DNA of 49,363 nucleotides from Candidatus Aenigmatarchaeota archaeon (GCA_039090665.1 JAWCSL010000005.1:1-49363), one strand, 5' to 3'. Shown: positions 944-11,665, counted from the first letter of the stretch. Made by a program: numbers and translations. The notes: generated by a model from the letters alone, not told the origin.

Positions 944-1127
944 AATCTAAATTTAGCTTGAATTTAAAAGAAGTTTAACCTTCAGTTTCTTGTGTCATTA
1001 TAGACTTTAAAATCTCGTCTCTCTTTTTCATATTTTTCTCTAAGCTTAGATTTTTTAAAATTTTAAAAACCTAATAGCGGGGCCTGGATTTGAACCAGGG
1101 ACCTCCGGGTTATGAGCCCGGCGAGCA

Positions 1128-1138
1128 TTCTGTCAAAA
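1128..1138 (-). other. 11-nt relaxed BHB/BHL intron in the D-loop of tRNA-iMet
   Basis: CTGG[AG^T]TTTG ACAG[AA^T]GCTC; excision of TTTTGACAGAA restores a normal D-loop; central helix has 3 of 4 pairs. Confidence 0.8.
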
Positions 1139-1153
1139 CTCCAGGCTGCTCCA

Positions 1154-1176
1154 TTGCGGTTTCCTTTATTGGAAAT
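1154..1176 (-). other. 23-nt BHB intron at tRNA position 7/8
   Basis: GCGG[GG^A]TTTCC-AATAAA-GGAAA CCGC[AA^T]GGAGC: 4-bp central helix and two 3-nt bulges; cutting after the 2nd bulge nucleotide restores AGCGGGG|TGGAGC. Confidence 0.88.
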
Positions 1177-1235
1177 CCCCGCTAGAGCTTATGCCTTTCA
1201 TTGTCCCCGCTATTTGAATTAAATTGATGTTCGCT

Positions 1236-1250
1236 AATTTAAATCTTTAT
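1236..1250 (-). promoter_or_regulatory. BRE/TATA box of tRNA-iMet
   Basis: Minus strand ATAAAGA-TTTAAATT, about 30 nt upstream of position ~1212. Confidence 0.55.
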
Positions 1251-1347
1251 CAAAAGGCTAATCATTTTTCATTCTCCTTTTACTCTATCCGAATCATAGT
1301 TCAGTCTGGAGGGAAACTTTTTTAAATAATTTCCCTATATATAATAC

Positions 1348-2655
1348 ATGATAATGAGGGATGTTTGGATAAGAATAATTAAAGATTTCAAGGAGTTTGA
1401 GCTACCAAAAATCATAGAAAGAGAAAAAACTATAAAGACAGAAATACCGATAAAAAGAGTAATTTCGATAATAGGACCGAGAAGGGTAGGAAAAACTTAT
1501 TTCATGTTCCAGCAAATAAGAAAACTTTTGGATGATGGTGTGGAAAAAGAAAGAATTCTTTACGTGAATTTTGAAAGCGATTTGCTTATAGGAGCCACTG
1601 TTGATGATTTAAGAAACATGATGGAAATTTTCTATGAAATATATCCAGAAAATAAAAAAAAGAAAGTTTATCTATTTTTCGATGAAATTCAAAACATTCC
1701 TGGCTGGGAAAGATTTGTAAGAAGTATTATGGATTCAGAAAATGTTCAGATATTTGTTTCAGGATCTTCTTCAAAGTTATTATCAAAAGAGGTGGCTACA
1801 ATGATGAGGGGTAGGAGCTTACCTTATTATATTTTTCCCTTTAGTTTCAAAGAATTTCTCAAAGCCAAAGAGTTTAAACTCGGAAAATATCTTTCATCTT
1901 CACAAAAAGCAAAGCTCATGAACTTATTGACAGAGTATGTAAATTTTGGTGGATATCCTGAAGCTGTGCTATACCCTGAAGAAAGAGAAAAAATTCTCAG
2001 AGAAATTTTAGATGTAACCATTTACAGAGACATAACAGAAAGATTTGGAATTAAAAACATTAAATTAGTAAAGCTTCTTTTTAGACATTTAACTTCTTCC
2101 ACTTTTTTTTCTGTTCACAGCTTTTTCAATTATATAAAATCTTTCGGAATGAAAGTCAGTAAGAACACTCTTTACAACTATTCAGAATATTTTTCAGATG
2201 CTTTAGTTGTGATATTTTTAAGGAAATTTTCCAAGTCTTATAAAGAGATTGAACAAACAAAACCAAAGATATATTTCATTGACAATGGCCTTCTCTATAT
2301 CAATGGAGTTGAAAGTAAAAGTAAATTGATGGAAAACCTTGTTTTAGTTGAAATAGTCAAAAAGGGTTTTTTGCCGAATGAAAATATCTTTTACTACCAG
2401 AAAAATAATCATGAAGTTGACTTTATAATAATAGAAAAAATGAAAGCCAAAAAATTGATTCAAGTTTGTTACGATTTGAGTGACATAGAAACAAAGAAAA
2501 GGGAAATCAAAAGTTTGGTAAATGCAATGAAAGAATTTGGATTAAAAGAAGGGTTGATCATAACTATGGATTTTGAGGGTGAAGAAAAAGTTGATGGTAA
2601 GAAAATCATTTATGTACCTTTATGGAAGTGGCTCATTTCTTCTAATGAGTTTTAA
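1348..2655 (+). CDS. AAA_14 / DUF4143-family ATP-binding protein
   Basis: Walker A GPRRVGKT, Walker B LFFDEIQN, SGSSS, GGYPE, and C-terminal KIYFIDNG...ENLV...EVDF typical of the family. Confidence 0.9.
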   Translation: MIMRDVWIRIIKDFKEFELPKIIEREKTIKTEIPIKRVISIIGPRRVGKTYFMFQQIRKLLDDGVEKERILYVNFESDLLIGATVDDLRNMMEIFYEIYPENKKKKVYLFFDEIQNIPGWERFVRSIMDSENVQIFVSGSSSKLLSKEVATMMRGRSLPYYIFPFSFKEFLKAKEFKLGKYLSSSQKAKLMNLLTEYVNFGGYPEAVLYPEEREKILREILDVTIYRDITERFGIKNIKLVKLLFRHLTSSTFFSVHSFFNYIKSFGMKVSKNTLYNYSEYFSDALVVIFLRKFSKSYKEIEQTKPKIYFIDNGLLYINGVESKSKLMENLVLVEIVKKGFLPNENIFYYQKNNHEVDFIIIEKMKAKKLIQVCYDLSDIETKKREIKSLVNAMKEFGLKEGLIITMDFEGEEKVDGKKIIYVPLWKWLISSNEF

Positions 2656-2777
2656 ATTTTTTTATAAATTCACCCATCTGCAGAAGTTATAAGTTTTGTA
2701 GCTACTACTCTTTCTCCATTGCAGTTTCTTTATCGGAAATTAATTTAAATCTTTTTCTCCAAAAATTCCTTTATTTT

Positions 2778-3203
2778 CTAGACTCTTTCCAGATTTTTCT
2801 TTCTGTTGATCATGGAATAGACTTTAAGCTGATCTTCTAACCTTGAAACAGGAATTCCTAATTTTCCAATTTTCACAAAAACTGGTCTTTTTAGCCTCCA
2901 CGTCAATGAAACCCATCTCCCATAAACTTTAGCTTTCAGATCTCCCATTACTTCAACATCAATTCCCTCAACTCTAAACTTCCCAAAATGAGAAGAAAAA
3001 ACTCTTGATTTGCTAAACTTCACTGGTTTAACTTCATATTCTTTCAAAATTGAAGAAATCTTATAAGCTCCTTCTTTCGTTGTTAAGATGTCTATATCCT
3101 TTGGTTCAATTTCTACTCCTTGCAAAGCTAGACTTGCACTTCCTACAACCATCCATTCAACTTTTCTTCCAAGCAATTCACACAACCTTTCCAATACTTT
3201 CAA
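2778..3203 (-). CDS. Minimal nucleotidyltransferase-fold protein, possibly with a premature amber stop
   Basis: VVGSASLALQG...PKDIDIL (GS and DxD motif); the frame continues *KIKEFLEKKI* to 2745. Confidence 0.75.
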   Translation of the reverse strand: MKVLERLCELLGRKVEWMVVGSASLALQGVEIEPKDIDILTTKEGAYKISSILKEYEVKPVKFSKSRVFSSHFGKFRVEGIDVEVMGDLKAKVYGRWVSLTWRLKRPVFVKIGKLGIPVSRLEDQLKVYSMINRKKNLERV

Positions 3204-3352
3204 GAAATTTTTTCCACAGTTAATATTTCTCCTTTCCGGTCTTTAAATTTCACTCACCCCTTGAGTTCGAAATCTAAATCCTGAGCTTTTCTCCAGCTTC
3301 TCCTCATGAGCGAGATGAAAAAATTGGAAAAATCGCTCTTTGGGGTGAAAGC

Positions 3353-3616
3353 ATGAAGAAGAGTTTTTGGAAAGGCCTGACCTCGCTGCTCTGCACTGCA
3401 AGCGGAACAGGAATTGGCTACATGGCAGCTCAATGCGGCTCTCTAGCCTACATAGCCGGGAGAGAAATTTGGAATCTTGTTAACGGCTTGCCTATAACAC
3501 CGATTCCTGAATTGCTAAGGGATTATGCAGTTTACACTTCTACTGCTGCTCTGATTGGCGAGGTTAGCGGCTATGTTTTCCACAAAAAAATTTGGAAAGC
3601 CTTGGGGGGTGAGTGA
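3353..3616 (+). CDS. Small hypothetical membrane protein
   Basis: SD GGGGTGA at 3342-3348; two Gly/Ala-rich hydrophobic segments. Confidence 0.7.
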   Translation: MKKSFWKGLTSLLCTASGTGIGYMAAQCGSLAYIAGREIWNLVNGLPITPIPELLRDYAVYTSTAALIGEVSGYVFHKKIWKALGGE

Positions 3617-3898
3617 ATGGTGAAATTGAGTGAAATTGATATCGGTACTAAAGATTTGATTATTGCTTTGGGTTCTGCCCTCATTGGCTATTATGCGAGA
3701 AAGCCAATAGAAGAAATGAAAAAGGCTGAAAAAGAGAGTGATGCTCAACTCATAGGAAAAACAGCAGCACAGTATGTTGCTGCAGAACTCAGAAGCTTTG
3801 GAATTGGACCTGAAACTTACAGAGCAATAGACGAGTTAACACAAACTTTGAAAGAATTAAGAGAAGAGTTGAGAAAATACAGGGATAAAAATGGTTGA
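3617..3898 (+). CDS. Hypothetical protein with N-terminal TM and coiled coil
   Basis: SD GGGGTGA; LIIALGSALIGYY followed by charged heptads. Confidence 0.7.
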   Translation: MVKLSEIDIGTKDLIIALGSALIGYYARKPIEEMKKAEKESDAQLIGKTAAQYVAAELRSFGIGPETYRAIDELTQTLKELREELRKYRDKNG

Positions 3899-4079
3899 AG
3901 AAAATGAAATCATTTCGATGATATATGGTTTGCTTCAAGGCTTAAAAGCCTACAGGGAAGCTTACAACAAGCTGAACAATAAAGAGCAAGAAAACATGGA
4001 AATAAAGCTGGAAGAAGTAGTTGAAAAATACAAGCAGTTTGAAAAGTTACTCTATTTTCTTGGAAAGGTGATTAAATGA
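3891..4079 (+). CDS. Small helical hypothetical protein
   Basis: Overlaps or abuts its neighbours; typical codon usage. Confidence 0.6.
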   Translation: MVEENEIISMIYGLLQGLKAYREAYNKLNNKEQENMEIKLEEVVEKYKQFEKLLYFLGKVIK

Positions 4080-4484
4080 ATGAAAGAGTATCTCTCAAGA
4101 CTGATAGAGTATCAAGAATTGATGAAGGAAATTGAAATTGCAGGAGAAGAACATCTGAAGATCATCAAACAAAATCCCTCCAGCTACTTGAAAAAAATTG
4201 AAGAGCTTAGGACAAGAATTGCTTCTGATGTTTTCCTAGCTGCTGAAGATAAAGAAAAAATGCTTAAGAAGATTTCGAGCTACATGGAGCAGCTTGAACA
4301 AAAGAAAGATGAGCTAGATATGAATTCATTTTTGTTGGGCGCTCTTTTAATTCTTCTAGCAAAAGAAGGTATACTTCAAGAAGTGATTGAAAAAGTTGGG
4401 GAGGTGTTTGGCAGTGCCAACTCGCTATATTCACAAAAAGATTTCGAAAATCTTGTTGGGCAAATCTTGCGAGAAAACGAATAA
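4080..4484 (+). CDS. Helical hypothetical protein
   Basis: SD AGGTGA upstream; abuts the previous stop codon. Confidence 0.65.
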   Translation: MKEYLSRLIEYQELMKEIEIAGEEHLKIIKQNPSSYLKKIEELRTRIASDVFLAAEDKEKMLKKISSYMEQLEQKKDELDMNSFLLGALLILLAKEGILQEVIEKVGEVFGSANSLYSQKDFENLVGQILRENE

Positions 4485-4674
4485 AGTCATAGACTATCCT
4501 GTGAAATTTCTTGGTAGAAAACATAGGATTTTATTTCACGATCCTTTGTCTGCCTTAATTATTGGAATTGCTTATGATGGTGTAGAAGGTGCAGTTTCTG
4601 GCCTACTTCATATTGCAGTTGATAAAATTTGCTCAAGATATCATGTGGAAAAAATCTTAGATTACTTGCTTTAG
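4414..4674 (+). CDS. Small putative metal-binding/hydrolase-like protein
   Basis: SD GGAGGTG at 4400-4406 and GTG start; H...HRILFHD...HIAVD pattern resembling metal-dependent hydrolases. Confidence 0.6.
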   Translation: MPTRYIHKKISKILLGKSCEKTNKVIDYPVKFLGRKHRILFHDPLSALIIGIAYDGVEGAVSGLLHIAVDKICSRYHVEKILDYLL

Positions 4675-5571
4675 TCTAATTTGCATGAAATCAAAAGCGA
4701 CTTTTGAGTTTGGGAAAATCTTCTTTGCTTCTTCTTCTAATTCTTTTGCATCAGTGTAGCGCCTGCTTATGTGAGTTAAAATTAGTTGCTTGACATTAGC
4801 TTCTTTTGCTATTCTTGCAGCTTGTTTTACATCAGCATGAGCCTTCCCTTCTTCTTCTTCAAGAAAGGTTCCATCGTGAATGAGCAAATCAGCGTTTTTA
4901 GAAATTTCCAAAATATTATCACAAGGCTTAGTATCGCCAGAATAAACCACTTTCAACCCAGGTCTTAAATTTGCCACATCTTCTATCTTCACTTCCCTTC
5001 CCTTATATTCAACTTTTCCAAATTTTTTCAATTTCTTGAGCCAAGAACCACTTCTTAAACCAAGCTCTCTTAACTTTTTTGTGTCTATTTTCCATTTTGG
5101 TTTTTCTTGAAAACAATAAGCTACTGCCGGCACTGTATGTAAGACAGGAATTGAAAGAATTTGGTATTCTGGAGTTTCGTCTATAAGCATAGGTTTATTT
5201 CCTTCAAAAGGAACATTTATAGCTTCCACTGGAAATCTCAGCCCAAAATATCCCAAATCCAAAATATCTGAAACAAATTTTTCAGCTTCTGGTCCAAAAA
5301 TTTTCAGCTTAGATTTCCTTTTTTCCAAGCTCATAGTCTGTATCAAAGGAATTAAGCCTGAAAAATGATCAGCATGCCAATGTGTGATAAAAATTTTGTT
5401 TATTTTCATGAAGCTTATGTTTGATTGCATGAGTTGTTTTTGAGTTCCTTCCCCACAGTCAAAGAGCAAAGTATCTTTTTCTTCACCAAAATACTCTAGA
5501 GCTATTGCCGGATGATTTCTATCTTTACTTGGAATTCCTGAAACTGTACCTAAGAAAGTTATTTGAATCAT
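4657..5571 (-). CDS. rnz: Ribonuclease Z
   Basis: FLGT..PSKDRN, DCGEGTQ, THWHADH, SGDT, HDGT, LTHISRRY. Confidence 0.96.
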   Translation of the reverse strand: MIQITFLGTVSGIPSKDRNHPAIALEYFGEEKDTLLFDCGEGTQKQLMQSNISFMKINKIFITHWHADHFSGLIPLIQTMSLEKRKSKLKIFGPEAEKFVSDILDLGYFGLRFPVEAINVPFEGNKPMLIDETPEYQILSIPVLHTVPAVAYCFQEKPKWKIDTKKLRELGLRSGSWLKKLKKFGKVEYKGREVKIEDVANLRPGLKVVYSGDTKPCDNILEISKNADLLIHDGTFLEEEEGKAHADVKQAARIAKEANVKQLILTHISRRYTDAKELEEEAKKIFPNSKVAFDFMQIRLKQVI

Positions 5572-6998
5572 GCAAGATTCTCCTTTTCAAAATATTTCCT
5601 CAAGAAAACACCAAACCCTTTATCCTTGTTAACAATTTCAATTATCCTTTCTATATCTGAAATTATTTCAAAACCCTTTGATATTTGTTCAGCTATGTTG
5701 CCGGGGATTCCCTTTGCTTTAAGAATACTTACATCAACACTTAAGCTATCGAAAAGCTTCTCTTTAGCTGTCATGAATTTTCTTTTAATCTCAACAACCC
5801 AATTCCTTCCTTCAATAAACGGCCCATTTATAGCCAGGTCTTTGTATTTCTCCAAAAATTTGTTTGAATCATCCAGATTAAAAACTTCTGGCCCGATTTT
5901 CTTCTGTACAGCAGGTAAATTTGAAACTTCCATCTCAAGCAAAACTACAGCCAAATCTTTTTCGTTTGTATAGCAATCTTTCCTCAAAACTTTGAACTCA
6001 TACTTGGTTTCTTCCAAAATGCTTTCCAATCTTTCCGCAAATTTTCTTAATTGAGGCCAAAGTATATCAGGGACAACATTTGGTGGAGAAAACTTTATCA
6101 AAATAAGCTCTGTTTTTCTTTCCAAAATTTTTTCTCTAAGTTCCTTTTCCGAAATTACTTTTATTTCACTTTCAAAAAACATCTCTTCTCTTGGATTTTC
6201 CAGAAATTCTTTTGCCAGTTTCTTAAATTTGAAAAAATTTTCTGGTGATAAAGCTGCTGCTGTGTTTCTATTTTTGTCGGTTGGATCAATTAAAATTAAA
6301 ACTTGCTTGGGAAACATTTTCTTGAGCTTGAAATAATCTTCTTTCTTGTAGAATTTCTCCAGATCTATTATTTCACCAGGATTCCATTTCAATGCTTGCT
6401 CCAACACATTCACAAAACTTTTGTACTTGATAACTAAAAGCTCACACACATAACCAGAAAAACCTTCTGTTTTTGCATCAGCACCATATAGCTTGTTTGC
6501 AGTTAAAAATTGCTTCAACAGCCTGACTTGATCTGAAAGTTTTAGAGGTAAGTTCTTCTTAAGATACTTCACATGAAATGGTGTTCTATCAACTGCTGAT
6601 TTTAGATTTTCTGTTGTTTTTACATCAAAACAAGGTACTATATCCACTTCTATTCCTTCAACATTTCCAGAAACATATGGATGTTGAGCGTATTCTATCC
6701 TGAAATTTCCATTCAAACTTTTTATTATCCTCTTTCCCAGTTCAAGACCTCTTTTCTCCAATTGTTCCACACTTATCTCTGGTGGAAAAAGAATGAAAAT
6801 ATCGAACTCTTTTTTTCCTGGAAGCCACGTATCTCTAGTCACACTACCAGCAACCAGTGGTTTTGCTTTAAATTTCTTGGCTTCTTTTTTTGCAATTCTT
6901 AAACATTTTTTAAGAACAGAATTGAGTTTTCTCTTCTCTTCTTCAGAGGGCCTAATTTTTTTCAAAACATTTTTAAGAATTCTAGAATAACTGGCCAT
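5568..6998 (-). CDS. cca: CCA-adding enzyme (archaeal class I)
   Basis: GSVTRDTWL..EFDIF, YAQHPY, SAVDRTPFH, GFSGY, DPTDKNRN. Confidence 0.95.
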   Translation of the reverse strand: MASYSRILKNVLKKIRPSEEEKRKLNSVLKKCLRIAKKEAKKFKAKPLVAGSVTRDTWLPGKKEFDIFILFPPEISVEQLEKRGLELGKRIIKSLNGNFRIEYAQHPYVSGNVEGIEVDIVPCFDVKTTENLKSAVDRTPFHVKYLKKNLPLKLSDQVRLLKQFLTANKLYGADAKTEGFSGYVCELLVIKYKSFVNVLEQALKWNPGEIIDLEKFYKKEDYFKLKKMFPKQVLILIDPTDKNRNTAAALSPENFFKFKKLAKEFLENPREEMFFESEIKVISEKELREKILERKTELILIKFSPPNVVPDILWPQLRKFAERLESILEETKYEFKVLRKDCYTNEKDLAVVLLEMEVSNLPAVQKKIGPEVFNLDDSNKFLEKYKDLAINGPFIEGRNWVVEIKRKFMTAKEKLFDSLSVDVSILKAKGIPGNIAEQISKGFEIISDIERIIEIVNKDKGFGVFLRKYFEKENLA

Positions 6999-7126
6999 AA
7001 TTAACAATAGGTTTGAGAAAAATAAAAGTAATGAAGGAGTTTGTTCTAGCTTATTTTTTGTAGAAAAAAAAATTCACTACTTCAAAATAGTAAAGTTTAA
7101 ATATTAGTACCACTAAATAGTAACAT

Positions 7127-7282
7127 ATGAGTAGGGATAAAGAAGAAGTAAAGTTTTATGAAGAGCAACTTTACGAAGCTAAGCAAGCCTTGTTTGCAGC
7201 CAGAACAATAAAACAAGCTAGGTTTTTACAAAACAGGATAAAATTTTTAACAGAAATGATAAAAGAAGCTAAAAAGAAATAA
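7127..7282 (+). CDS. 51-aa hypothetical helical protein (not in the ORF track)
   Basis: MSRDKEEVKFYEEQLYEAKQALFAARTIKQARFLQNRIKFLTEMIKEAKKK; TTTAAATA box at 7096-7103 fits a leaderless transcript. Confidence 0.7.
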   Translation: MSRDKEEVKFYEEQLYEAKQALFAARTIKQARFLQNRIKFLTEMIKEAKKK

Positions 7283-7340
7283 AAGTTTTCTTTTTATATT
7301 TTTCACGACAAAAATCTTTTTAAATTTTTTTGACTTAATT

Positions 7341-8471
7341 TTGGGTTGGGTCTTGCTTCAAGCGGTTTTAGCATTAGAAGATGGAACAATTTTCAAGGGT
7401 GAAGGCTTCGGTTATCCTTGCGAAGCTTATGGCGAAGTTGTATTTAACACTAGTATGGTTGGTTACACAGAATCTCTGACAGATCCTTCCTACAGAGGCC
7501 AAATATTAACTCAAACCTGGATTTTAATAGGAAACTATGGTGTACCCCCTTTTTCTTTAATCGATAAATTTAACTTTCCATTACATTTTGAGTCAGAAAG
7601 AATACAAGTAAGAGGATATGTGGTTCAAGAAATTGTAAAAAGACCTAGCCACTGGTCAAACAATAAAAGCTTGGATGAATGGTTGTTTGAGCAAAAGATT
7701 CCTGGAATAGAAGGAATAGATACTCGTGAGTTAACAAAAAAACTAAGGAGTAAAGGTGTGATGCTTGGAATATTGAAAGTTGATGAGAAAATTGATGTTG
7801 AAGAAATAAGAGAAAAAATAAAGGAGATTGAAGATCCAAACAAAAGAGATTTAGTAAAGGAAGTGAGTGTAGAAAAACCAATAGAATACAATAGCGACTC
7901 ACCTCTTGTAGTGGTGATAGATTGTGGTGTGAAATTTGGAATATTAAGGAATTTGGCAGCAAGGAATGTTGGTTTAGTAAGAGTGCCTTATGACTATCCT
8001 GTAGAAAAAATTTTAGATTATGAGCCTTCAGGTATTCTCATTTCCAACGGTCCTGGAGATCCAAAAATATGTGAAAAAACAATCCAAACTGTAAAAGAAC
8101 TATTGGAAACAGATTTACCAATCATGGGAATTTGTCTTGGTTGCCAAATTCTTGCTTTGGCAGCAGGTGCTGAGACTTTCAAGCTAAAGTTCGGGCATCG
8201 TGGATCAAACCATCCTGTTCTTGATTTGTTTACCAAAAGATGCTACATCACAAGCCAAAATCATGGATATGCTGTAGATCCAAATAGCTTAAAAGAAACT
8301 GAATTCGAAATTCAATTCATAAATGCAAATGACAAGAGTGTTGAAGGAATAAAACACAAGAAAAAACCAATATTTGCAACTCAATTCCATCCAGAAGCTT
8401 CTCCTGGACCTTATGAAACTGAATTTTTGTTCGATTTGTTTGTGAAGGAGGTGAGGAAATATAAGAGATGA
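7341..8471 (+). CDS. carA: Carbamoyl-phosphate synthase small subunit
   Basis: LEDGT, GEVVFNT, SNGPGDP, GICLG nucleophile, QFHPE; the start may be the TTG at 7353. Confidence 0.97.
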   Translation: MGWVLLQAVLALEDGTIFKGEGFGYPCEAYGEVVFNTSMVGYTESLTDPSYRGQILTQTWILIGNYGVPPFSLIDKFNFPLHFESERIQVRGYVVQEIVKRPSHWSNNKSLDEWLFEQKIPGIEGIDTRELTKKLRSKGVMLGILKVDEKIDVEEIREKIKEIEDPNKRDLVKEVSVEKPIEYNSDSPLVVVIDCGVKFGILRNLAARNVGLVRVPYDYPVEKILDYEPSGILISNGPGDPKICEKTIQTVKELLETDLPIMGICLGCQILALAAGAETFKLKFGHRGSNHPVLDLFTKRCYITSQNHGYAVDPNSLKETEFEIQFINANDKSVEGIKHKKKPIFATQFHPEASPGPYETEFLFDLFVKEVRKYKR

Positions 8472-11400
8472 AAGCATAAAAAAAGTTCTCATACTAGGTA
8501 GCGGTGCAAAGTGTTGAAAAAACACGCACACTCAAAATAGGAGAAGCTGGAGAATTTGATTACTCTGGAGCACAAGCAATTAAAGCTTTGAAAGAAGAAG
8601 GAATAAAAGTGGTTCTTGTAAATCCAAACATAGCAACAATCCAAACAGATGAAAAGTTTGTAGACAAAGTATATTTCTTGCCTATAACACCTGAATTTGT
8701 AGAAAAAGTAATAGAAAAAGAAAGACCTGATGGAATTTTGTTGACTTTTGGCGGACAAACTGCATTAAATTGTGGTGTAGAGCTTCATGAGAGAGGTATT
8801 TTAGAGAAATATGGTGTGAGAGTTTTGGGAACAGGAATAGAAGCAATTGAAATTGCAGACAATAGGGAAAAATTCAAGAACATTTTGCTCAAGAACAATT
8901 TGCCTGTGCCAAAGAGTGAAAAAGTAAACAGCATAGAAGAAGCTGTGGAAGCTGCCAAGAAGATAGGGTATCCTGTAATGATAAGAGTTGCCTACACACT
9001 TGGTGGTCAAGGGTCTGGTGTTGCTGAAGATGAAGAACAATTGAAGAAAATAGCATCTTTGGGTCTGGTACACAGCAGGATAAAACAAATTTTGGTAGAA
9101 GAATATCTTGGAAAGTGGAAAGAAATTGAGTATGAAGTAATGAGAGATTGTGAAGACAATTGTCTGATTGTATGCAATATGGAAAATTTCGATCCTATGG
9201 GTGTACACACTGGCGAAAGTATAGTGGTTGCTCCTTCACAAACTTTAACAAACAGGGAATACCATTTGTTGAGAATCACAAGTTTCAAAGTCATAAGAGC
9301 TCTTGGAATAGTTGGTGAATGTAACATACAATTTGCTGTTAACCCAGAAAGTGAAGAATTCAAGATAATAGAAGTGAATTCCAGGCTATCGAGATCTTCA
9401 GCATTGGCATCAAAAGCCACAGGCTATCCGATAGCTTACATTGCAGCAAAATTGGCAATAGGCTACACGCTACCAGAACTTTTGAATAAAGTAACTCAAG
9501 TCACAACAGCTTGCTTCGAACCCGCTTTAGATTATATCGTGGTAAAAATTCCAAGATGGGATTTTCAAAAATTCAAAAATGTTTCTAGAAGAATTGGAAC
9601 ACAAATGAAGTCGATAGGAGAAGTAATGGCAATAGGAAGGAGCTTCGAAGAAGCTCTTCAAAAGGCTGTTAGAATGCTTGAAATTGGAAGAGAACTAACC
9701 GACACGAGCGAACTCACTAGCGATAAAGAAAAAATAAAGGAAATGTTAGAAAAGCCTACAGATGAAAGACTTTTCTATATAGTTAAAGCACTTCAAGTTG
9801 GTATGAGTGAAGAAGAAATTCACAAACTAACAGGAATTGATGAATGGTTCTTACACAAGATAAAGAGAATAGTTGAGATGGAAGAGGAAATAAAAAATTT
9901 GAATGAAGATACTTTGAGAAAAGCGAAAAAACTTGGTTTTTCAGACAAAAAAATTGGAGAGCTTGTAGGGAAGAGCGAAAGTGAAATCAGAGAAATGAGA
10001 AAATCTCTTGGAATAGTACCTGTTGTTAAACAAATAGACACTCTAGCTGCAGAATGGTCGGCCAAAACAAATTACCTTTACTTGACTTACAATGGTAATT
10101 ATGATGATATAGAAGTTGAGAAAAAGAGAAAAATTATAGTTCTTGGCTCAGGTTGCTACAGAATTGGTTCAAGCGTAGAGTTTGATTGGTGTTGTGTTAA
10201 TATGGCTTGGGCTCTAAAGGAAAGAGGGTTCGAGAGTATAATGATAAATTGTAATCCAGAAACAGTTTCTACTGATTTTGATATCATGGATAAGCTTTAT
10301 TTTGAAGAGCTCACCCTTGAAAGAGTTTTAGACATTTGTGAAAAAGAAGAACCTGAAGGAGTTGTTGTAAGTGTTGGTGGCCAAACACCAAATAACTTGG
10401 CTCTAAAACTTGCAAAAAATGGTGTGAAGATTATTGGAACTTCTGCCGAAGATATAGATAGAGCTGAAGATAGAGCTAAATTCAGCAAGCTTTTGGATGA
10501 ACTTGGAATTAAACAACCTAAGTGGGGAAAAGTTGAAAATCTGGAAAAAGCAAAAGAATTGGCTGAAAAAATAGGATATCCTGTTTTGATCAGACCTTCT
10601 TATGTGCTTTCCGGCTCTGCAATGAATGTTGCCACAAATGAATCTCAGCTAAGAGAATACTTGACAAAAGCAGCAAAAATTTCAAGAGAATATCCTGTAG
10701 TTATATCTAAGTTTATGACGAATGCTAGAGAAGTTGAAGTTGATTGTGTTTCTGATGGTGAAAATGTTTTTATTGGTGCAATAATTGAGCATTTGGAAAA
10801 TGCTGGCGTGCATTCAGGAGATGCAATAATGAGCATTCCGACACTTACAATAAGTGAAACAATAAAAAACAAGATAAGAGAGTATACTAGAAGAATTGCA
10901 AGAGCTCTCAGAATAAAAGGTCCTTTCAACATTCAGTACTTGGCAAAAGATGGGGAAGTCTATGTGATAGAATGCAACTTAAGGGCTTCAAGAAGTATGC
11001 CGTTCGTTTCTAAAACTATAGGAGTGAATTTGATGGAAATTGCTGCTGATGCTATACTTGGTAAAAAAATTAAAGATGGTGAATATTTGCCAAATGTTTT
11101 TGCAGTAAAAGTTCCGCAATTTTCTTTCATGAGATTGGAAGGTGCAGATCCCGTTACTGGAGTAGAAATGGTTTCAACAGGAGAAGTTGCCGCTTTTGGC
11201 AAAACTTTTGAAGAGGCTTTCATCAAAGCCCTGATAGCTAGTGGTGTTGAGCTTCCGAAAGCTAACGATGGTGTTTTGATTTCAATCGGTGGAGAAAAAA
11301 GCAAAATAATTGAAATTGCAAATAAGCTTGTGAGCAGAAAAATAAATATTTATGCGACTGAAAAAACTTCAGAAGAATTGAAAAAATACGGGATAGAAAA

Positions 11401-11665
11401 TGAAGTTGTGAAGAAGGTTAGCGAACCAAGACCAAATATTTTGGATTATTTGATGAATGGAAAAATAAAAATGGTGATAAATATTCCTTCAACAAATGGT
11501 GTAGTTAGTACACAAGCGTTAGATGATGAATACTTGATAAGGAGAAAGGCTGTAGAATTCAAAGCTTTTGTGGTTAGTAACCTTCAAGTGGCAAAAACTT
11601 TAGCAGATGTTTTAGATTTTTATCACAAAAATGGAGTTGAAAATTGTGTGGAGTTTGAAAAATAG
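8461..11665 (+). CDS. carB: Carbamoyl-phosphate synthase large subunit, join(8461..8509,8532..11665), 1060 aa
   Basis: Spliced N-terminus (M)[28 protein letters not shown]; two ATP-grasp domains and a C-terminal MGS-like domain; SD GGAGGTGA at 8447-8454. Confidence 0.95.
8510..8531 (+). other. 22-nt BHB intron in carB mRNA
   Basis: GTGC[AA^A]GTGTT-GAAAA-AACAC GCAC[AC^T]; contains an in-frame TGA; excision restores frame and the GAIKIG consensus. Confidence 0.88.

Follow-up and report, generated by a model that had tools for sequence, protein, structure and literature searches.

Two genes in a 49,363-nt contig of a Candidatus Aenigmatarchaeota archaeon (GCA_039090665.1, JAWCSL010000005.1:1-49363; this whole stretch is called the window here) are each interrupted by an insert of 22 or 23 nt built on the same plan: an initiator tRNA-Met gene and carB, which encodes the large chain of carbamoyl-phosphate synthase. 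Why should a tRNA gene and a protein gene share such an interruption? A sequence-only reading of the window had proposed that one class of micro-introns spread to both tRNA and mRNA targets in this lineage. Our analysis makes it highly likely that both inserts are bulge-helix-bulge (BHB) introns that the archaeal tRNA-splicing pathway excises from the RNA. In carB we very probably have a new protein-coding host of BHB splicing, and the shared architecture is a known motif, not a new class. We infer cleavage and ligation in the cell from sequences, folds, the match of the predicted junctions, conservation, covariation and the presence of the enzyme genes.

Both insert strings described in the sequence-only reading are present, on the minus strand in the tRNA gene and on the plus strand in carB (Table 1), and their common layout was confirmed: one nucleotide, a hairpin, four nucleotides complementary to the upstream exon, and two further nucleotides. 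The partner of the four-nucleotide block consists of the exon bases that end two positions before the insert. In the tRNA, CCGC is complementary to G2-G5 (GCGG) in the acceptor strand just upstream, and in carB, GCAC is complementary to GTGC at 8504-8507. The BHB motif is described as a central 4-bp helix flanked by 3-nt bulges on opposite strands, each cut after its second base (PMC5829648). The layout found here is that of an archaeal BHB intron with a minimal hairpin as its inner helix; it is the smallest arrangement that satisfies the splicing endonuclease and a general rule of short BHB introns. The likeness between the two inserts arises because the splicing enzyme imposes the layout, and so it is no evidence for a special class or for common descent. 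Beyond a first-base A and, mostly, a final AA, the inserts have no sequence in common. Of the original proposal, the single mechanistic class stands, as BHB, and propagation from a common source is not supported.

A third insert on this plan lies in cbf5 of the same genome, and the helices of all three can be compared. The central helix is GUGC:GCAC in carB, with bulges AAA and ACU (RNAfold); UCCC:GGGA in cbf5, with bulges ACA and AAA (minimum-energy fold); and GCGG:CCGC in the tRNA, with bulges GGA and AAU as read from the sequence, the centre of the RNAfold structure being different. Outside this core, cbf5 has an outer helix h (GUGG:UCAC) and a 5-bp h', the tRNA pairs its leader with the D-stem and also has a 5-bp h', and carB has only 1 bp beyond the 3' bulge. 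In each case the predicted excision restores the RNA: the carB and cbf5 junctions give the residues of insert-free orthologues, and the tRNA-Met forms a cloverleaf after excision only.

In the proposed mechanism, four bases near the 3' end of the intron would pair with the four exon bases that end two positions upstream of the intron, making the central 4-bp helix. The intron's own hairpin would form the inner helix, leaving two 3-nt bulges on opposite strands. The endonuclease EndA would cut each bulge behind its second base, and the ligase RtcB would join the exons. Excision would rejoin positions 7 and 8 of the initiator tRNA-Met; in carB, loss of 22 nt would restore the frame and create the Ile codon of GSGAIKIGEAGEFDYSG.

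The carB junction can be checked to the base. The insert lies between GGT AGC GGT GCA A on its 5' side and TC AAA ATA GGA GAA GCT GGA GAA TTT GAT TAC TCT GGA on its 3' side, and it breaks the upstream frame ...IKKVLILGSGA. The predicted motif consists of the central helix (8504-8507:8526-8529), the 5' bulge (8508-8510), the intron hairpin (8511-8515/8521-8525, loop 8516-8520) and the 3' bulge (8530-8532), and the minimum-energy fold from RNAfold gives its 4-bp helix, 3-nt bulge and 5-bp hairpin. Cuts between 8509 and 8510 and between 8531 and 8532 join GCA A to TC AAA and yield GSGAIKIGEAG; in DNA letters the predicted junction reads ...GGTGCAA followed directly by TCAAAATAGG. All four insert-free relative loci (G006, G017, G030 and G005:C29; G, C and L numbers are our handles for genomes, contigs and loci, and the window is contig C11 of genome G000) read GSGAIKIGEAG, identical to the predicted spliced product.

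The insert also occurs in close relatives, with 22 nt in G005:C1 and 21 nt in G002 and G004, where the loop has one A fewer and the insert carries an in-frame TGA. Among the four genomes, only one loop base and one bulge base of the intron differ, far below the change at synonymous sites, while exon 1 keeps its frame with synonymous changes in G002, G004, G005 and the metagenome locus L136. Over 779 aligned codons of the four intron-bearing genomes, the ratio of nonsynonymous to synonymous change (dN/dS) is 0.046-0.062 with dS of 0.5-1.3, and carB is therefore in use and under purifying selection. A metagenome survey of 80 related carB loci found 78 uninterrupted at the site, one that ends at a contig end (L133) and one with introns, L136. 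This locus (81% amino acid identity) is interrupted at the same site by a 20-nt intron, in which U:A has become C:G both in the central helix and in the hairpin. Of the 36 cells in the alignment of five sequences, 35 pair, and two pairs, one per helix, are changed on both sides; when the partner is slid along the alignment as a control, pairing falls to 14-75%. L136 also has a second carB insert of 16 nt at 372-412, between GEAGE and FDYSG and 25 nt downstream of the first, which follows the same plan (A-GC-TAATT-GC-CGCC-AA); for this insert RNAfold favours another pairing.

As it stands, the unspliced tRNA gene receives no call from ARAGORN or Rfam, the Rfam tRNA match being limited to the 3' two thirds of the gene (27.2 bits). 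A second, shorter insert lies in the D-loop (Table 1). When both are removed (1176..1154 and 1138..1128), ARAGORN returns a 77-nt tRNA-Met(cat) cloverleaf; removal of a single insert gives a false tRNA-Val call and removal of none gives no call. The insert between positions 7 and 8 is flanked by AGCGGGG before and TGGAGCAGCCTGGAG after. Intron-less initiator tRNAs of relatives G044 and G039 read AGCGGGG-TAGGGC-AGCCTGGAGT-GCCC (AGCGGGG-T(A/G)G... with the variable base shown) and have AGCCUGGAGU as the D-loop, and it is these genes that place the first insert at 7/8 and the second in the D-loop. The 7/8 insert recurs within the genus, and its variants retain the fold. The G002 copy is identical to that of G000, the insert of G003 and G005 is 17 nt long with a stem of 3 bp (TTT-AATC-GAA-CCGC), and G006 has TTCCC-AGTTAA-GGGAA-CTGC, in which a hairpin U:A is replaced by C:G and the central helix contains a G.U pair; the outer pairing is preserved there as CUCC(A):(U)GGAG. 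RNAfold applied to the precursor recovered the hairpin and the outer helix between leader and D-stem (z = -4.1). D-loop-site inserts of 11-12 nt ending in CAGAA, CTGAA or CAGAT occur in G003, G005, G023, G055 and G011.

The 5' end of the tRNA is duplicated upstream as TAGCGGGGA. G003 and G005 preserve the upstream copy, which is degenerate in G002 and in G006, and it is on account of this degeneration that the downstream copy is taken as the real exon. When the whole precursor is folded, the upstream copy takes the 3' acceptor strand as its partner. Two further initiator tRNA-Met genes were observed among the relatives. At L032 (G006:C1:251193-251348), in the same genus, the gene has three inserts: at 7/8, in the D-loop and, with 13 nt, in the anticodon loop. 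At L040 (G047:C4, ~1511) the 3' part ...CCCCGCTA comes first, followed by two bases and then the 5' part AGCGGGGTAGA; this gene looks circularly permuted.

The sequence-only reading had suggested a search of this and related genomes for more cases, and further instances were found. G000 itself holds a 21-nt intron in cbf5 and a 23-nt intron in tRNA-Thr(UGU) (Table 1), while the relatives hold the second carB intron of L136 and cbf5 inserts in G007 and G030. The cbf5 insert of G000 has a canonical hBHBh' minimum-energy fold (RNAfold) and interrupts DKHSGPT/SHQV, with DKHSGPTSHQV as the spliced product; the domain matches are DKCLD for exon 1 and TruB_N, TruB_C_2 and PUA for exon 2. Among the 29 loci of relatives, GPTSH is uninterrupted in 28 and the remaining locus ends at a contig end, so that the insert at this site is seen in G000 only. 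G007 (L107, ~1137) and G030 (L112, ~2253) instead carry inserts of 15 and 12 nt, respectively, at the Asp codon of GTL-D-P, each with an in-frame TGA and with stem z-scores of -3.5 and -4.8. These two sit within long exon-exon stems, and G000 has no insert at that codon. The different cbf5 sites among close relatives point towards repeated gain or loss. At another cbf5 locus, L130 (G045:C21, ~1924), a TAG is aligned with a conserved Glu (HMTELRR versus HMK*LRR) and no insert accompanies it; a broken gene, an error and recoding are each possible. The tRNA-Thr insert came from an ARAGORN-based search that gave 8 junction-spanning calls from 67,447 loose hits and is a partial census.

Table 1. 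Positions of the inserts and of the genes and elements that surround them (window coordinates unless a contig is named)
Feature	Location	Strand	Details
Initiator tRNA-Met(CAU) gene, two inserts	1075..1183	-	A1 = 1183; discriminator A73 = 1075; CCA not encoded
Second insert, D-loop, 11 nt	1128..1138	-	TTTTGACAGAA; position ambiguous by 1 nt; no hairpin, bulge-helix-loop type
Probable BHB intron between tRNA positions 7 and 8, 23 nt	1154..1176	-	A / TTTCC-AATAAA-GGAAA / CCGC / AA
5' leader GCUCU	1184..1188	-	Pairs with G9-C13 (GGAGC) to give outer helix h; RNAfold minimum-energy structure
9-nt upstream duplicate of tRNA 5' end	1204..1212	-	TAGCGGGGA; 29 nt upstream of the real copy
carA, carbamoyl-phosphate synthase small chain	7341..8471	+	Pfam CPSase_sm_chain 1.6e-48, GATase 3.3e-54
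carB exon 1	8476..8509	+	...IKKVLILGSGA plus first base of Ile codon; conserved frame, alignment to insert-free G006 carB
Probable BHB intron of carB mRNA, 22 nt	8510..8531	+	A-GTGTT-GAAAA-AACAC-GCAC-AC
carB exon 2, carbamoyl-phosphate synthase large chain	8532..11665	+	1043 codons + stop; Pfam CPSase_L_D2 2.2e-113, CPSase_L_D1, CPSase_L_D3, MGS
Probable BHB intron of cbf5, 21 nt	G000:C10:53755-53775		A-GGAGC-TTAA-GCTCC-GGGA-AA; in-frame TAA
Insert of tRNA-Thr(UGU) at 30/31, 23 nt	G000		A-AGAGC-TACAAA-GCTCT-GGTG-AA

The same two protein genes emerged when no motif was assumed. A comparison of G000 with G006 in both directions returned exactly two clean micro-inserts in real genes, those of carB (+22) and cbf5 (+21, with a stop), and both carry the strict motif in exact register. 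This comparison used G006 as its single reference, open reading frames of at least 100 amino acids and exon pieces of about 8 amino acids or more, and it misses introns that are shared with G006 or lie in short genes. The strict motif, defined as 4 Watson-Crick bp, a 3-nt bulge and a stem of 5 Watson-Crick bp with a loop of 3-9, has a background of ~1.5e-5 per position and length, for which reason its register on both inserts is not due to chance. Two of the frame-breaking strict hits restore a conserved protein, again carB and cbf5.

Other candidates were examined and set aside. The top frame-joining hit, C8:48831-48852, is the boundary between the Mre11 and Rad50 genes; at the strict hit C8:70493 the unspliced frame is open and conserved; and the strict hits C13:25347, C15:31352, C11:41676, C8:73000, C12:33765, C9:47517, C1:18691 and C3:4232 gave no alignment to G006 across the junction. 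An extra stretch of 105 nt at C10:33409 is intergenic, between uL14 and uL24. The metK and rtcB genes of G000 have no interruption. Relative to G006, a phosphoribosyltransferase-like gene at C1:47630-48400 has two single-base frame shifts beside homopolymer runs and another gene at C9:36095 has one frame shift; these are either pseudogenes or assembly errors, not introns.

The genome is a 15-contig assembly of 620,606 bp with 31-36% G+C and 90.6% completeness, and the public runs that contain the window DNA are labelled as hot springs metagenome. DNA contigs span the carB insert (run X2 record 6, X4 record 16 and X8 record 22) and the tRNA insert (records 5, 15, 17 and 25) without gap or difference. 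X2 and X4 are possible sources of the G000 assembly, and X8 and X9 have no such flag. Since contigs from several studies contain both inserts gap-free, they are not assembly artefacts.

If the inserts are BHB introns, where do they come from? At least four intron sites are now apparent in two genes of close relatives: carB at GSGA/I, carB at GEAGE/F (L136), cbf5 at GPT/SH (G000) and cbf5 at the Asp codon (G007 and G030). Spread of one mobile or copied micro-intron family of common origin, from tRNA into protein genes of this lineage, is unlikely. It could account for four inserts in 0.62 Mb with nearly equal size (21-23 nt), a 5-bp stem, a first-base A and mostly a final AA, and for gains that look recent and recurrent: the cbf5 insert in G000 only among 29 loci, the carB insert in the closest clade only and the second insert of L136. 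The size and plan are the minimum of the enzyme, however, so convergence is expected, and the inserts have no sequence similarity to each other. The introns of tRNA-Met 7/8, carB and cbf5 are each present as a single copy in the genome at up to 3 mismatches. The 4-nt guide also differs from site to site and fits the local exon, which a transposed element could not carry with it. In the open reading frame list we noticed no homing-endonuclease gene beside carB, though no dedicated search was made. We tentatively suggest instead that in this DPANN group tRNA-type micro-introns may arise repeatedly in essential protein-coding genes, with the hairpin and the complement of the upstream exon built on the spot; we regard this as possible and somewhat short of an even chance.

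That the carB insert stays in the mRNA, and that the ribosome copes with it by programmed frameshifting, bypassing or read-through of a stop, is very improbable. A hairpin directly after the break does resemble known recoding stimulators, and the initiation context at the carB N-terminus is odd. The insert lengths nevertheless speak otherwise. The 22-nt forms would need a change of frame and the 21-nt forms would need read-through of TGA and tolerance of seven extra residues inside the conserved GSGAIKIG loop, and because these demands differ, one recoding mechanism cannot serve both. The shift between 3n and 3n+1, with both exons in register with the cut sites, points to removal at the RNA level and not to translation through the insert. 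Bypassing would fare badly, as a ribosome that took off at GCA would have a single downstream GCA to land on and would from there read three codons before a stop. Recoding has no use for the pairing with the upstream exon that compensatory change preserves in L136. Damage to carB, either as a pseudogene or as a gene that starts at GTG 8504 or later without its first strand and glycine loop, is scarcely credible: a frame from GTG 8504 is open for 1053 codons and the genome does have genes that are frame-shifted against G006 (C1:47630-48400 and C9:36095), but across the 779 codons dN/dS in the four genomes is about 0.05, five loci preserve the exon 1 peptide IKKVLILGSGA while differing synonymously, which would be senseless if exon 1 were untranslated, and the insert is conserved far above the synonymous rate.

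Genes for both enzymes of the proposed splicing pathway are present. One EndA gene was found (G000:C12:23832-24110, 94.8 bits), with 188 amino acids and both endonuclease Pfam domains. Its alignment with the M. jannaschii alpha4 enzyme (1a79) runs over the full length, save for six extra residues before the catalytic His region; the loop reads YERGVKLIRGPKAPHEH where 1a79 has YERGANI------DKEH, and the loop of the ARMAN-2 enzyme 4fz2 is similar in length at that place. Loops near the catalytic site of broad-specificity EndA are known as CSL/L1, ASL/L2 and L3, and DPANN alpha4 EndA with an extra loop has been associated with disrupted tRNA genes (PMC5829648). RtcB (C14:31340-32644, 547 bits) is intact and free of stops.

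Several observations weigh against splicing of these inserts as BHB introns. The public runs that contain the window DNA include 0 RNA runs. An outer helix is missing from the 3' side of the carB motif, which is of the relaxed HBh' form, and alpha4-type EndA is classically strict about its motif. In the minimum-energy fold of the tRNA, G6-G7 are joined to the CC of CCGC and A1 to U8, so the textbook bulges are not drawn. Covariation comes from a single divergent sequence in each case, L136 for carB and G006 for the tRNA. The excess over shuffled sequence for which the sequence-only reading had proposed a scan did not appear: the strict descriptor gave 131 hits in 0.62 Mb against 130 ± 14 in 20 dinucleotide shuffles, and with the loose descriptor 3285 hits compare with 3454-3746 in 10 shuffles (about 3580). 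Nor was there an excess at frame breaks, with 201 of the 3285 loose hits joining long frames against 184-211 at random positions. A frequency test with this descriptor neither detects nor refutes such introns; the observation is significant only because the motif lies in exact register on inserts that are defined independently by insert-free orthologues.

A last difficulty is the start of carB. The carA stop overlaps the start region of carB, and exon 1 has no in-frame ATG, GTG or TTG after the in-frame TGA at 8452-8454. A conserved 3-codon open reading frame, ATG-AAA-GCA-TAA (8468-8479), takes its start from the carA stop (ATGA) and terminates over an in-frame ATA at 8476. This ATA is conserved in all five intron-bearing carB loci, and insert-free relatives have a normal ATG. 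Translation may start at ATA 8476, as an AUA start or by termination-reinitiation. The want of a canonical start codon in exon 1 implies a further unusual event at the CarB N-terminus.

A very short intron cut at stem-loops (26 nt in XBP1), with a change of frame, is known from unconventional HAC1/XBP1 mRNA splicing in eukaryotes by IRE1 and an RtcB-type ligase. That system resembles the one proposed here in its short intron, protein endonuclease and sealing by RtcB; it differs in the endonuclease and the recognition structure, and HAC1/XBP1 splicing is stress-regulated. In archaea, confirmed pre-mRNA splicing within a coding sequence is limited to cbf5 of Crenarchaeota, the intron of which Watanabe reportedly described in 2002. 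Our search found no literature report of an intron in carB, subscription journals being outside its coverage. One study names cbf5 as the only archaeal mRNA intron reported to date besides its own case in a 5' untranslated region (PMC7714728, Schwarz 2020), and an earlier one states that no gene besides cbf5 had been confirmed as a host of BHB mRNA introns, though others had been predicted (PMC2738675, Yokobori 2009). The crenarchaeal cbf5 intron is like the present cases a short BHB intron in a coding sequence, removed by tRNA splicing endonuclease and ligase, with patchy gain or loss among close relatives (PMC2738675). The host gene here is carB, and the organism is a DPANN archaeon with a single alpha4-like EndA, whereas the crenarchaeal enzyme is heteromeric. 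Non-canonical tRNA introns of Thermoproteales, Nanoarchaeota and ARMAN take hBHBh', HBh', hBH and BHL forms and, as here, occur outside 37/38, several per tRNA, with relaxed motifs and an extra-loop EndA (PMC5829648). The 7/8 intron differs from these in that its outer helix is formed by the 5' leader paired with a D-stem strand. The BHB intron of Haloferax volcanii HVO_1309 (PMC7714728) likewise makes an mRNA the substrate of the archaeal splicing endonuclease; it lies in the 5' untranslated region, whereas the coding sequence is interrupted here and removal is needed for the protein.

These short, clean substrates of ~60 nt suit tests of relaxed-motif handling by an alpha4-type endonuclease that has an extra loop. 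Gene callers will list a truncated carB here and a split or stop-bearing cbf5; because such intron-bearing genes are misreported, metabolic reconstructions of small genomes can miss working genes. If the reading of both inserts is true, carB and cbf5 introns in one genome would mean that ordinary metabolic mRNAs are served by the tRNA-splicing machinery of DPANN archaea. If repeated creation is also true, these archaea would offer an ongoing example of introns arising de novo in the mRNAs of prokaryotes, and many DPANN genes recorded as 'frameshifted' or 'truncated' would really be spliced.

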